A stretch of DNA of 55,894 bases from Syntrophales bacterium. Lineage in GTDB: Bacteria; Desulfobacterota; Syntrophia; Syntrophales; Fen-1087. Each line of letters starts with the position of its first letter. Positions within the stretch are counted from its first letter, which is position 1. The stretch lies in the NCBI GenBank assembly GCA_030656035.1, contig JAUSOK010000168.1, positions 1 to 55,894 of the forward strand, in the 5' to 3' direction. Of this stretch, positions 13,603 through 17,561 are shown one piece after another. A program made the translations under genes and the position numbers. The notes beneath the pieces are model-generated. The model saw nothing but the letters and a program-made list of their open reading frames with translations, made no database searches and was not told the origin of the DNA.

Positions 13603-14823
13603 TCAGGCGTATTGCGTTTTCAGCGAACGAAACCGATTATGGTTTTGACGCTGTGGAAACGCCACGGGGTTTTTTTCCAAAGCTTCGCGATAATCAAACC
13701 CCTCCAATACTTTTCTTTCGATCGGCGTACCCAGCGTCTTTTCAATCTCCCGGATCGTGTCCCTATCTTCACGGGTGACCAGCGTAAAGGCGTCGCCCAG
13801 GCGCTCGGCCCTGCCTGTCCGGCCAATCCGGTGAATGTAGCTGGTAGCCGAATCGGGAATGTCAAAATTGATGACATGGGAAATGGAAGAGACATCCAAT
13901 CCCCGGGCCGCGATATCCGTCGCGACGAGGACTTTGATTTTTCCTGTCCGGAACTGGTCCATCGACTGTTTGCGCTGGCTCTGGGATTTGTTTGAATGCA
14001 GGGCCGAGGCCGCATAGCCGGCACGCTTTATTTTTTCCGTGACGCGATCAGCGCGGTGTTTTGTCCGGGTGAATACCAGGATGGAATGGACCGTCATCTC
14101 GTCAAGCAGCCGCTGCAACAGGCCGGGCTTTAAGTGCTGCGGGACCGGGTAAAGCGTATGCGCAACGGTACTGGATGGCGCATCGGTTCCCATCGAAAAT
14201 CGCTGCGGCGAGCGCAATGACTTTGCGGCCAGTTGTTCCACTGCCGCATCGAATGTCGCCGAAAAGAGCAGCGTCTGTCGTTGGGAAGGCACCTGCTTCA
14301 TGATCTGCTGGATGGACGGCAAAAAACCCATGTCCAGCATGCGATCCGCTTCATCGATCACGAGAACCTCAACCTGATCCAGCCTGGCGTTTCCCCGGTT
14401 CAGATGATCCAGCAAGCGACCCGGACAGGCGACGATCACCTCGACGCCCTGCTGCAAAGCCTTTTCTTGCGGCTGCATCCCCACGCCGCCGTAAACAGTG
14501 GCCGATCGCAGGGACGTAAATTTCCCCAGCTCGTTGATCACCGTATGGATCTGTTCAGCCAGTTCGCGCGTCGGCGTGACAATCAGCGCACGCGTCGCCC
14601 TGCGACCGCCCTGCTTTTTCATGGCGAGCAGGTTGTGCAGGATCGGAAGCACAAAAGCGGCGGTTTTGCCTGTGCCGGTCGGGGCCGTTCCGATCACGTC
14701 ACGCCCCGCCAGAATGGCGGGAATGGCGACAGCCTGGATCGGCGTCGCTTTCTCATACCCGGCCGCTTGAAGCCCTTGCCCCACACGACCGTCTAACTTG
14801 AAACTTTCAAAACTCATTTTCAT
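13603..14823 (-). CDS. rhlE: DEAD-box ATP-dependent RNA helicase (RhlE-like)
   Basis: Q-motif region, Walker A APTGTGKTAAF, VIDEADRMLDMGF (DEAD), SAT, and HRIGRTGRAG. Confidence 0.9.
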   Translation of the reverse strand: MKMSFESFKLDGRVGQGLQAAGYEKATPIQAVAIPAILAGRDVIGTAPTGTGKTAAFVLPILHNLLAMKKQGGRRATRALIVTPTRELAEQIHTVINELGKFTSLRSATVYGGVGMQPQEKALQQGVEVIVACPGRLLDHLNRGNARLDQVEVLVIDEADRMLDMGFLPSIQQIMKQVPSQRQTLLFSATFDAAVEQLAAKSLRSPQRFSMGTDAPSSTVAHTLYPVPQHLKPGLLQRLLDEMTVHSILVFTRTKHRADRVTEKIKRAGYAASALHSNKSQSQRKQSMDQFRTGKIKVLVATDIAARGLDVSSISHVINFDIPDSATSYIHRIGRTGRAERLGDAFTLVTREDRDTIREIEKTLGTPIERKVLEGFDYREALEKNPVAFPQRQNHNRFRSLKTQYA

Positions 14824-15236
14824 CCTTTATAATTACCAGCAGTTGAGAGATTTGAACCCATTTCGAACCGGCACGGCTGGTAAAGACAAGGCTCTTTACG
14901 CGCTGGGTGAGCGCCTTAAAGACAGGTCGCGAACACGGCATTAAATTTGGATTCTGTTTAGATTAGCGGGATTTTCCTGCCGAAGTTTCTTGTCAAGAAA
15001 GGTGGGAAGGTCAATGACAAACGCTATCACGGCCGTCTTTCTACACGCCTGGTCGAAAAATAGCAAGAACTATTTTCAACTATTTTTGCGTATTTGCGAA
15101 AAATATGCTGTTTTCGTGAATCGACACAGCACCCCATGAAAAAGAAGGTTCTTATCAATGGAAAGTCAAACCGTTATTAAAGTTCTCATCCCGCCTGTGC
15201 TGTTCCGACAGCACCAAAATAAACGAGGTGATGACT

Positions 15237-17561
15237 ATGGGACTCTCTATCTTTCTTAAATCACTGGATATTTTTTCCGATCTGAACGATCGGGAAAGGT
15301 TCATCCTTGCCGAAAACGCGCAAGGGATTGAATACGCCCCCGATGCTGCGATCATCAAACGGGGGGAAATCGGCAGTTTCCTCTGGATTGTCCAGGAGGG
15401 GGAGGTGAAAGTGATCCTGCCGCCGTCCGGTTCGGCAGGAGAAATCACCATCCTTTTAAAAACAGGCTCCCTGTTCGGCGAAATGTCGATCATGACCGGG
15501 GAACCGGCCAGCGCGGACGTCGTGGCTGCGACCGCCTGCAGGCTGATCAAGATCCCGAGGGATGCCGTTTCCCAATTGATCGCCGGAAATCCCAAGACCC
15601 TGGGAAAATTTGCCCGGCTGATCACGGAGCGGATGCTCAGCAATGCCCGGGTCGCAGCCCAACAGGATCTCCAGCGGTCCGCCCACCAGGTTAATGAAGA
15701 TCCTTACGATCTGAATTTTTCCTCGGCCTCGGAACCGCTGAAAATCCTGGTTTTGAACAGCGGCAGTTCATCCCTGAAGTATTCCCTTTTCGACACCATC
15801 CAGAACCAGCCGCTCCTCGAGGGGGAAATTGAAAAAATCGGTTCCGGCGATGCCGCCCATCAGATCAGAACCCCTCAGACAAAGCGGAAGGATCCGCAAC
15901 CGAGCGTCATGAACATGAACGACGCCTTTGATGTCATGATCCGTACCCTCACAGACCCAGAATTTGCGGCCATCGACCGTCTCAGTGATCTCAATGCAGT
16001 CGGTCACCGTGTCGTACACGGCGGCGGACAATTTTCCAATGCCGTGGTTATCAATGAAAATGTCATGGCCTCGATCCGTTCTTCCTGTTCGCTGGCGCCA
16101 CTGCACAATCCTTACAATCTGGAGGGAATAGAACGCATGCAGCTCCTGTTGCCTGATATCCGGCAGGTGGCTGTCTTTGACACGGCCTTTCACCAGACCA
16201 TGCCCAGCCATGCCTATACCTATGCGCTCCCCCATGAGATCTGTGAAAAGGAACAGGTCCGGCGCTACGGTTTTCACGGAACCAATCATGAATACGTGGC
16301 GCTCCGGGCGGCCACCTGGCTCAAGCGCCCCCTGGGCGAGTTGAAAATTATCTCCTGTCATCTGGGCAACGGCGCCTCCCTCTGCGCCATCGACCATGGG
16401 CGCAGTATCGACACGAGCATGGGCATGACCCCCCTCGAAGGTCTGATCATGGGCACACGGCCCGGGGATGTGGACCCCGGCGTCATCCTTCATCTCATGA
16501 AGGGCGCTTCTTTAAATTTCGAAAACATGGACCGGATGCTGAACAAGGAAAGCGGATTGAAGGGCATCAGCGGAAAAAATGACATGCGGGAAATCCTTGC
16601 CGGCGCAGAACAGGGTGATGTGCAATGCACCCGGCCCGTCAGCGCTTTCTGTTACAGGATCCGCAAATATATCGGCGCCTATGTGGCTGCTCTGGGCGGG
16701 CTCGACGTTTTGATCTTCACTGCCGGCATCGGCGCCAATTCCTCCGAAATCCGTGCCGGGATCTGCCAGGGGCTGGACCTGTTCGGCATTTACCTCCTTA
16801 AGGACCGCAATCTGCACAGCGTGGATCAGGGACAGGTCCTGGACGTTTCCGCGCCGGACGCCAGGGTCCGGATACTGGTGATCCCTGCCGACGAGGAACG
16901 CATGATCGCCCGGAAGACCCTTCATGCCATGGGCCGGGTCCGGACCGTCGAAGAAACAAGGATGCTCCGGTCGAAACCGGTCCCCATCAGTGTTTCCGCA
17001 CATCATGTCCATCTAAGTCAGCCTGATTTTGAACAGCTCTTCGGTCAGGGGAAAACGATGACCCCAAGATCCGATCTGACCCAGCCGGGCCAGTTTGCCT
17101 GCCAGGAAACGGTCAATCTCATCGGACCGAAAGGACGGGTCAGCCGTGTCCGTATTCTCGGCCCCAGCCGGAAGGAATCACAAGTGGAAATTTCGCGTAC
17201 CGAGGAATTTCAGTTGGGGATCGACGCCCCTGTCAGGGAATCAGGAGACCTGGCCGGGACGCCGGGGATCACCATCGAGGGGGAAGCGGGTAGGATTGAA
17301 CTGGAAAAGGGAGTTATCTGCGCAAAGCGTCATATCCACATGTCTCCCGAAGACGCCCTCGGCTTCGGCCTCCGCAATCGTGATGTGGTCCGGCTGGGGG
17401 TCAGGGGCGAGCGGGGACTGATTTTCGGCGACGTGGTGATCCGTGTGGATCCGAACTTCAGGCTGGATATGCACATTGATACGGATGAAGCCAACGCCGC
17501 TGAGATTTCTACCGGGGCATCGGGATTCATCGACTCGATCCAGCACCGGCGTTATATGTAA
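15237..17561 (+). CDS. Tri-domain fusion: cyclic-nucleotide-binding domain + acetate/propionate kinase + PduL-type phosphate acyltransferase
   Basis: N-terminus shows a Crp-like cNMP fold (IIKRGEIGSFLWIVQEGEVKV...GSLFGEMSIMTGEPASADVVA). The middle shows AckA motifs (LVLNSGSSSLKYSLFD, VGHRVVHGG, FDTAFHQTMP, YGFHGTNHEY, FTAGIGANS). The C-terminus shows PduL motifs (SAHHVHLS, GPSRKESQVEISRTE, AKRHIHMSPEDA, LDMHIDTDEANAA). A GAGGTG SD lies 6 nt before the ATG at 15237; the GTG at 15228 and the ATG at 15231 are alternative starts. Confidence 0.85.
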   Translation: MGLSIFLKSLDIFSDLNDRERFILAENAQGIEYAPDAAIIKRGEIGSFLWIVQEGEVKVILPPSGSAGEITILLKTGSLFGEMSIMTGEPASADVVAATACRLIKIPRDAVSQLIAGNPKTLGKFARLITERMLSNARVAAQQDLQRSAHQVNEDPYDLNFSSASEPLKILVLNSGSSSLKYSLFDTIQNQPLLEGEIEKIGSGDAAHQIRTPQTKRKDPQPSVMNMNDAFDVMIRTLTDPEFAAIDRLSDLNAVGHRVVHGGGQFSNAVVINENVMASIRSSCSLAPLHNPYNLEGIERMQLLLPDIRQVAVFDTAFHQTMPSHAYTYALPHEICEKEQVRRYGFHGTNHEYVALRAATWLKRPLGELKIISCHLGNGASLCAIDHGRSIDTSMGMTPLEGLIMGTRPGDVDPGVILHLMKGASLNFENMDRMLNKESGLKGISGKNDMREILAGAEQGDVQCTRPVSAFCYRIRKYIGAYVAALGGLDVLIFTAGIGANSSEIRAGICQGLDLFGIYLLKDRNLHSVDQGQVLDVSAPDARVRILVIPADEERMIARKTLHAMGRVRTVEETRMLRSKPVPISVSAHHVHLSQPDFEQLFGQGKTMTPRSDLTQPGQFACQETVNLIGPKGRVSRVRILGPSRKESQVEISRTEEFQLGIDAPVRESGDLAGTPGITIEGEAGRIELEKGVICAKRHIHMSPEDALGFGLRNRDVVRLGVRGERGLIFGDVVIRVDPNFRLDMHIDTDEANAAEISTGASGFIDSIQHRRYM

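Follow-up and report, generated by a model that had tools for sequence, protein, structure and literature searches.

A predicted single-chain PduL-acetate kinase with an N-terminal cyclic-nucleotide-binding-fold domain in a Syntrophales bacterium

Proteins that join acetate kinase (Ack) to the phosphotransacylase PduL have been noticed before. Erbilgin et al. (2016) pointed to PF06130 pairs in multidomain proteins "annotated as Acks" that lack encapsulation peptides and suggested substrate channeling (PMC4784909), as an initial annotation of the locus studied here had partly noted. The two-domain fusions were noted in that paper from sequence only, and our literature search gave no study of them. 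They carry Ack followed by a two-repeat PF06130 PduL and lie outside bacterial microcompartment (BMC) loci. Here, we analyze a gene of 774 codons plus stop (15237..17561, forward strand) in the window, a 55,894-nucleotide stretch of DNA from a Syntrophales bacterium (contig JAUSOK010000168.1, assembly GCA_030656035.1). The two-domain fusions are the nearest tree relatives of its enzyme part, at 44 to 50% identity, but they are without the approximately 168-residue N-terminal cyclic-nucleotide-binding (CNB)-fold domain and DPYDLNF connector of the protein described here. Moreover, in one-genome-per-species contigs and in our tree they occur mainly in Myxococcota and in some Gammaproteobacteria, not in Syntrophales. 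A literature search combining CNB domains with acetate kinase, PduL and syntrophs found no description of the tri-domain protein, in agreement with the initial annotation, which knew of no characterized example with such a regulatory domain. We conclude that the Ack-PduL fusion is already known and that its sensor-bearing form is undescribed in the literature searched.

The gene is a single open reading frame (ORF). Translation of 15237..17558 on the forward strand gives 774 codons with no internal stop, and the stop codon follows at 17559..17561; the program-made ORF list starts at an upstream GTG (15228..17561, 777 amino acids [aa]). ATG 15237 is likely the true start, because it is preceded by GAGG at 15224-15227, because every homolog begins at the aligned Met, and because a relative of the same genus (G086) has no alternative in-frame ATG at 15231. 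The GAGG is part of a Shine-Dalgarno-like GAGGTG (15224..15229, +) that was read from the sequence and is kept in the G086 genome. Translation and Pfam together upheld the initial description of one uninterrupted frame of 774 to 777 aa in three parts, and full-length profile matches did the same for a complete Ack and a complete PduL on one polypeptide. All of the motifs quoted for these domains were found in the protein (LNSGSSSLKY, PADEE, SAHHVHLS, RHIHMSPEDA and HIDTDEANAA). The assignment of the whole gene as CNB-fold domain, acetate kinase and PduL draws on Pfam, NCBIfam, homologs and a full-length AlphaFold2 (AF2) model, built from a 48-sequence alignment, with a predicted local distance difference test score (pLDDT) of 88.7 and a predicted template-modeling score of 0.89. 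The gene is currently annotated only as "acetate/propionate family kinase."

The middle of the chain (residues 169-565; 15741..16931, +) is predicted to be a complete acetate/propionate kinase. Residues 169-559 match PF00871 (Acetate_kinase) over model positions 1-392 of 392 with 451 bits against a cut-off of 22 (E 2.6e-135), and TIGR00016, the NCBIfam ackA model, scores 449 bits against a cut-off of 293. The domain matches the acetate kinase of Methanosarcina thermophila (1G99/1TUU, E 8e-114), and Foldseek superposes the AF2 model on 1G99 in the ASKHA two-domain fold with a template-modeling score (TM) of 0.94 and a root-mean-square deviation (rmsd) of 2.4. Residues N174, R258, D315, H347, N378, R408 and E553 align with N7, R91, D148, H180, N211, R241 and E384 of the M. 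thermophila enzyme, its catalytic residues. Likewise, V260, L289, F346 and P399 align with V93, L122, F179 and P232, the hydrophobic acetate pocket of that enzyme (Ingram-Smith et al. 2005). The M. thermophila kinase (1G99, 1TUU and 1TUY) shares 45% identity in the Foldseek alignment and is identical at all catalytic and acetate-pocket positions, but it is a stand-alone protein of 408 aa with a separate Pta-type phosphotransacetylase partner and no sensor domain. Conservation was scored as mean column entropy over 37 Syntrophales and Nitrospirota homologs (the core homologs), and the Ack domain averages 1.06. We note that residues 398-410 (16428-16466, TPLEGLIMGTRPG) are the sole segment of the full-length model with pLDDT below 50, and that this almost invariant segment includes catalytic R408 and pocket residue P399. 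The low pLDDT may reflect ambiguity in cleft closure or a contact missed by a monomer model.

The C-terminal part (residues 583-760; 16983..17516, +) contains both PF06130 repeats of a PduL phosphotransacylase without an encapsulation peptide, as assigned by PF06130, NF011652 and 5CUO. It is separated from the kinase by a variable connector (residues 566-582; 16932..16982, +) with an entropy of 1.99, among the two least conserved segments. Residues 583-757 match PF06130 (PTAC/PduL) over model positions 1-175 of 176 with 255 bits against a cut-off of 25 (E 3.6e-76), and NF011652 (PduL subfamily PRK15070) scores 260 bits against a cut-off of 209. The Rhodopseudomonas palustris PduL structure 5CUO is matched with E 3e-49 by sequence and with TM 0.96 and rmsd 1.0 by Foldseek. 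In the alignment, H590, H592 and E651 correspond to Zn1 ligands H48, H50 and E109 of R. palustris PduL, H699, H701 and H746 to Zn2 ligands H157, H159 and H204, and R645 to the phosphate-contacting R103. All six zinc ligands are invariant across the 48 aligned sequences, whereas Lys replaces R645 in three Nitrospirota rows. The mean column entropy of the domain is 0.81.

The PduL domain here is cytoplasmic and non-microcompartment. R. palustris PduL (5CUO and 5CUP) is 48% identical in the Foldseek alignment, with the six zinc ligands and the phosphate Arg conserved, but it is a core enzyme of a BMC and carries an encapsulation peptide at its N terminus. In contrast, the PduL domain of the fusion is C-terminal and has no N-terminal encapsulation peptide, and features expected of the PduL of a BMC metabolosome core are therefore missing. 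The initial annotation had found no BMC shell genes in the window, and we found none (PF00936) in the window, among the neighbors or in the whole host genome, a 1.98-Mb metagenome-assembled genome (MAG) that is 91% complete in 209 contigs. We rejected BMC association on the absence of shell genes from that genome.

The PduL domain, a di-zinc phosphotransacylase, would convert acetyl-coenzyme A (acetyl-CoA), possibly also propionyl-CoA, and phosphate to acyl-phosphate and CoA, and the acetate kinase domain would pass the phosphoryl group to ADP to give acetate and ATP. The pair would be reversible in principle, and the fusion would keep the labile acyl-phosphate on one chain. The product thus would be a stand-alone cytoplasmic bifunctional enzyme of substrate-level phosphorylation. 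With its catalytic residues intact, the protein appears capable in principle of turning acyl-CoA, phosphate and ADP into acid, CoA and ATP on one chain, as was first proposed. From sequence and model together, we consider the bifunctional PduL-Ack part of the explanation very probable.

Fusions read from a draft genome might be artifacts, with two or three adjoining genes merged through a missed stop or a frameshift. The source is indeed a fragmented MAG of 209 contigs, and frameshifted copies exist in other MAGs. A word-indexed search, however, returned more than 115 independent protein clusters of 771 to 789 aa and 58 to 92% identity, alike in length and with the same three domains by precomputed Pfam assignment; their named members come from Smithella, Smithellaceae, Syntrophaceae and Syntrophales MAGs, and all are annotated only as "acetate kinase" or "acetate/propionate family kinase." Moreover, there are 23 full-length or near-full-length matches without internal stops in the same order, and the motifs of the connectors are conserved at both junctions. 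With the same tri-domain design in hundreds of independent assemblies, a missed stop or a frameshift is very unlikely, and we regard the chance of an artifact as negligible. The frameshifted copies themselves (L054 and L082) are tri-domain genes split in two MAGs and probably are assembly errors or mislabeling; one of the two is labeled "Syntrophus aciditrophicus," though the type strain is reported to be without Ack and Pta.

The tri-domain form is widespread and common among uncultured anaerobes. When HMMER was run exhaustively against 1.84 billion representatives (50%-identity clusters), it returned 14 representative clusters with matches running from the CNB end of the query to its PduL end, at 763 to 799 aa and down to 35% identity, and all three domains were present in each of the five proteins from those clusters that were scanned with Pfam. 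The same search recovered other architectures, namely two-domain Ack-PduL proteins (about 600 aa), CNB-Ack proteins (about 570 aa) and a single fusion of a response regulator to Ack. The last (P0210 in the representative library, 586 aa) has a response-regulator receiver domain N-terminal to a full acetate kinase and is another sensor-Ack architecture. Contigs sampled at one genome per species place the tri-domain form in Syntrophales, in magnetotactic Nitrospirota ("Ca. Magnetobacterium casense," Magnetominusculus and Magnetocorallium), in Planctomycetota/Phycisphaerae and in Victivallales. Among 121 genomes of the same order, about 22 hold a full-length tri-domain copy without an internal stop, 5 a two-domain form, about 18 a plain Ack and 76 no Ack. 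The N-terminal extensions of "longer" two-domain homologs (L055 and L081) were rejected as domains; they are read-through of GC-rich upstream sequence.

The tri-domain architecture in four phyla is compatible with a single origin. In a midpoint-rooted maximum-likelihood tree of the Ack-PduL part only (72 proteins, 616 columns), all 39 tri-domain proteins lie on one side of one branch (SH-aLRT, the Shimodaira-Hasegawa-like approximate likelihood ratio test, 93), which requires one state change, a number as low being reached in none of 500 label shuffles. Two-domain Ack-PduL proteins from Myxococcota and Gammaproteobacteria fall outside that side, and the tri-domain proteins, grouped together, adjoin the Myxococcota two-domain clade. 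The simplest history suggested by the tree is a single addition of the CNB-fold domain to an Ack-PduL fusion that already existed, followed by movement of the gene between phyla.

At the N terminus, residues 1-152 (15237..15692, +) form a predicted beta-roll with long C-terminal helices, assigned by PF00027, PDB sequence hits and Foldseek. PF00027 (cNMP_binding) matches residues 32-116 with 66 bits against a cut-off of 27.5 (E 2.4e-18), and PDB sequence hits of the domain include PKG, PKA-R, CNG channels and CRP. When modeled separately, the N terminus matches the CNB domain of MlotiK1 in Foldseek with TM 0.83-0.85 and rmsd 1.8-2.0, and further matches are the CNB domains of HCN, PKA and CRP; the full-length model, too, matches CNB domains in Foldseek. 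Within the fold, the equivalent of the phosphate-binding cassette (PBC; residues 80-95, FGEMSIMTGEPASADV; 15474..15521, +) reads F-G-E-M-S-I-M-T-G-E-P-A-S-A, and alignments place Ala91 at the Arg of E-P-R-S-A in PKG. The PBC Arg (R82 in CRP and R209 in RI-alpha) is the residue that binds the cyclic phosphate (PMC10959531). It is absent from all 42 tri-domain homologs, which come from four phyla; the position is occupied by A, V, T, E, S or G. The Gly-Glu of the cassette is kept: G81 is invariant in the 37 core homologs and E82, the ribose-binding Glu of FGE, is retained in 95%, with Asp in L033 and L035. We also considered whether E89, which precedes the PBC Pro, keeps phosphate out by its charge, and rejected the idea, as functional Plasmodium PKG cassettes also read D-E-P-R-S-A.

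Gating of the enzyme by cAMP or cGMP, the role first proposed for this domain, was not supported by the alignments: the CNB fold is present, but the PBC Arg is Ala91 here and is missing in every tri-domain homolog examined. A true but Arg-independent cAMP/cGMP receptor, through which the product of class III cyclases would switch Ack-PduL on or off, nevertheless has points in its favor, among them the fold, a Pfam score above cut-off, a kept FGE Glu that binds the ribose 2'-OH, and a strongly conserved cassette. The same genome has four class III cyclase domains, one of them in a CNB-GAF-GAF-PAS-cyclase gene directly after a ptb-ptb-buk cluster. Moreover, the domain gives a weak match to NCBIfam NF058543, the model of the mycobacterial protein acetyltransferase Pat (cNMP-binding domain plus GNAT). 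Pat has a CNB domain N-terminal to an enzyme at the acetate/acetyl-CoA node and exerts allosteric control over the catalytic domain of the same chain. Unlike the fusion, however, Pat has a canonical PBC, is activated by cAMP, and regulates Acs by acetylation without catalyzing the conversion itself. Beyond the loss of the Arg in 42 of 42 homologs, CNB domains on three other contigs of the same genome (C61, C172 and C25) keep the canonical R-[ST]-A. These Arg-bearing domains and the four cyclase domains indicate that Arg loss is not an organism-wide property. Finally, a trypanosome PKA-R needed the Arg restored for any cyclic-nucleotide response (PMC10959531). Judged by its cassette, the CNB-fold domain is not a canonical cAMP/cGMP receptor, and we consider true cyclic-nucleotide gating of Ack-PduL improbable.

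Two loci of the genome with CNB domains are of note. On contig C20 (1711-1956, -), another CNB domain in a 318-aa open frame carries a similar cassette, also without the Arg (GEMSVIDQQPVSANVVA). A tblastn search of the genome with the CNB domain of the fusion gave this as its only other match, at 28% identity. The ptb-ptb-buk locus mentioned above lies on contig C172 (30955-36923, -). There, a pair of PTA_PTB genes and one butyrate-kinase-like gene come first, and directly after them the same strand encodes a 979-aa ORF that has an Arg-bearing canonical CNB domain and a class III cyclase domain; GAF and PAS segments, as read from the sequence, separate the two. In this genome, the C172 locus is a second link of cyclic-nucleotide-type signaling with an acyl-phosphate module that yields ATP.

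If the domain does not bind cyclic nucleotides, it might bind no small molecule at all and serve instead as a structural or oligomerization module, with CRP-like dimerization through the C-helix, or as an autoinhibitory lid that keeps the Ack-PduL body in a particular quaternary state. The key ligand-binding Arg is lost, the C-terminal helices (residues 119-152) are long, the connector appears in the model to pack on the catalytic body, and two-domain Ack-PduL relatives in Myxococcota and Gammaproteobacteria manage without a CNB domain. The pocket-lining cassette GEMSIMTGEPA, however, is the most conserved part of the domain (mean column entropy of 0.84 for the PBC versus 1.7 for the rest of the CNB domain), which argues against a purely structural role. 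Moreover, there was no sign that the connector occupies the pocket in the manner of a KCNH-type intrinsic ligand: its pLDDT of about 88 fell to 54-57 when residues 1-179 were modeled alone, a weak test that uses confidence values only, and we set that candidate aside as not supported. A module that binds nothing is, in our view, unlikely, if somewhat less so than cyclic-nucleotide gating. We take the CNB-fold domain to be functional, and not a decaying relic, because conservation in the Arg-less cassette and in the connector is as high as in the catalytic domains.

The connector (residues 153-168; 15693..15740, +), assigned from alignment and pLDDT, contains a D155-P-Y-D-L-x-F-x-S163 motif that is invariant in the 37 core homologs, and the entropy of the segment is 0.79. 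It is modeled as coil in the full-length protein, and in the model of residues 1-179 alone it loses confidence as stated above while the beta-roll stays at 84-93. The drop without the catalytic body suggests that the order of the connector depends on that body, and the connector more probably packs on the kinase than fills the pocket.

We favor an allosteric sensor of a different, noncyclic small ligand as the role of the N-terminal domain; the long C-helix, together with the invariant DPYDLNF connector, would couple it to the kinase. The best precedent, by analogy, for a functional Arg-less CNB pocket is the trypanosomatid PKA-R (PMC10959531 and PMC6440977), which has the CNB fold with a replaced PBC Arg and is among the PDB hits. 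In the trypanosome PKA-R, cAMP has no activity and the role of ligand falls to purine nucleosides (PMC10959531). The likeness has limits, however, as an extra Glu in PKA-R (GELE...) binds the ribose hydroxyls, whereas the fusion has Ser84 (Ala in some homologs); the output in trypanosomatids is a protein kinase partner rather than a fused metabolic enzyme, and a nucleoside ligand here is only a candidate. We speculate, tentatively, that the Arg-less pocket represents a class of bacterial CNB-fold receptor that has been switched to another metabolite and gates a channeled PduL-to-Ack reaction via the DPYDLNF connector. Under that reading, the candidate ligands would include a CoA species, acetyl-phosphate, and a nucleoside or adenylate that reports energy charge. 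We infer the direction of flux, the channeling, the existence of a ligand and its regulation of activity. A sensor of a noncyclic ligand seems to us evenly poised between right and wrong, and the explanation as a whole, a bifunctional enzyme with such a sensor, seems reasonably probable.

Several observations weigh against that explanation. The genome encodes a bona fide AMP-forming acetyl-CoA synthetase (contig C34; 1010 bits against a cut-off of 725), six ADP-forming ACD-like proteins and the ptb-ptb-buk cluster, any of which might bear on the same step. Sequence alone names no ligand for the CNB-fold domain, and for the contacts between domains, AF2 confidence values are the sole source. 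Codon 47 (15375-15377) places Ser47 in the beta2-beta3 turn (GEIGSFLW) of the protein in the window, versus Arg in 92% of core homologs, including the 91%-identical P0003. A conserved neighborhood was not found either: in ORF clustering, no partner recurs in more than 7 of 36 tri-domain loci, and the neighbors give no functional hint. Finally, our searches gave neither biochemical data nor transcript or proteome evidence on any member of the family.

The fusion is the only full Ack and the only PduL in the host genome. S. aciditrophicus runs an acetyl-CoA synthetase (AMP-forming) in reverse for ATP synthesis (PMC4992975). Judged by gene content, the fusion is one of several possible routes from acetyl-CoA to acetate and need not be the main source of ATP; several parallel routes make a regulated enzyme plausible. 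Alternatively, the enzyme might run mainly in reverse, using acid, ATP and CoA to make acyl-CoA and so activating acetate or propionate. Both reactions are reversible, Ack-Pta activates acetate in Methanosarcina (PMC4784909), and the genome holds other candidate ATP-yielding routes. The host order, however, consists of syntrophic degraders of fatty acids and aromatic compounds whose catabolism ends in acetate, and an AMP-forming Acs is already there for activation. We consider a mainly reverse role doubtful, on a par with cyclic-nucleotide gating, and continue to prefer ATP formation.

The DNA around the gene adds little. A 6-bp hairpin just upstream (GTGCTG-TTCCGA-CAGCAC, 15197..15214, +) is present at the position first given but is unremarkable. 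In G086 the left arm reads ACGCTG, leaving a stem of 4 bp with no compensatory change, and the window contains 127 perfect 6-bp hairpins versus about 83 in shuffles. An Rfam scan of 14700-15300 gave no match. We rejected the hairpin as a regulatory element and judge it a chance feature, as it is not conserved in the genus, is of chance-level frequency and has no Rfam match in the leader. The wider fold of 15150-15260 has z = -2.5. Farther upstream, a leader of about 90 nucleotides (15048-15137, ...AATAGCAAGAACTATTTTCAACTATTTTTGCGTATTTGCGAAAAA...) is almost identical in G086, where it is followed by a 59-nucleotide insertion before the conserved Shine-Dalgarno region; on sequence grounds, it could be a promoter or operator. 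The upstream neighbor is a divergent DEAD-box helicase gene and the downstream neighbors are a separately promoted HlyD/AcrB efflux pair of the resistance-nodulation-division (RND) type. The helicase and the RND pump are not functionally linked to the fusion gene, and conserved gene neighborhood was rejected, with the best partner in at most 7 of 36 loci.

Some relatives depart from the pattern. A tri-domain subgroup in Planctomycetota/Victivallales (L043, L046, L047, L048 and L049, also P0147 and P0134) is without the DPYDLNF connector. In the same subgroup, the phosphate-1 loop of Ack is rewired, with N7 replaced by S or A, GSSS by R/L/K-D/R/N-D and K14 by R, while PduL is intact; R91 is Cys in two members. 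Most Ack catalytic residues are gone from P0147, and P0134 lacks PduL zinc ligands. These proteins may be pseudokinases or variants of altered chemistry. In "Ca. Magnetobacterium casense" MYR-1, a tri-domain copy and a CNB-Ack paralog (L052 and L056, contigs 5 and 20) coexist in one genome; the Ack loop of the tri-domain copy reads NSRIASLKY, and the paralog, of 571 aa, has no PduL within 6 kb.

The fusion bears on how genomes are read. Proteins annotated only as an "acetate/propionate family kinase" hide a phosphotransacylase, and metabolic reconstructions that look for pta would wrongly score such genomes as lacking phosphotransacetylase. As a compact, self-contained module from acetyl-CoA to ATP, the enzyme may also serve pathway engineering. 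For the organisms, the relevant step is the last one. Syntrophic degraders of fatty acids, aromatic compounds and alkanes (Smithella and relatives of Syntrophus) obtain most of their ATP by converting acetyl-CoA to acetate, and about one-fifth of the sampled genomes of the order carry, instead or in addition, a predicted single-chain PduL-Ack with a built-in sensor. Should the sensor respond to a metabolite, nature would offer, besides trypanosome PKA, a second CNB domain that has turned from cyclic nucleotides to something else. Substrate-level phosphorylation would then be under a direct allosteric valve, which would give metabolite-level control of the ATP-yielding step to organisms that live at the thermodynamic limit with several parallel routes.

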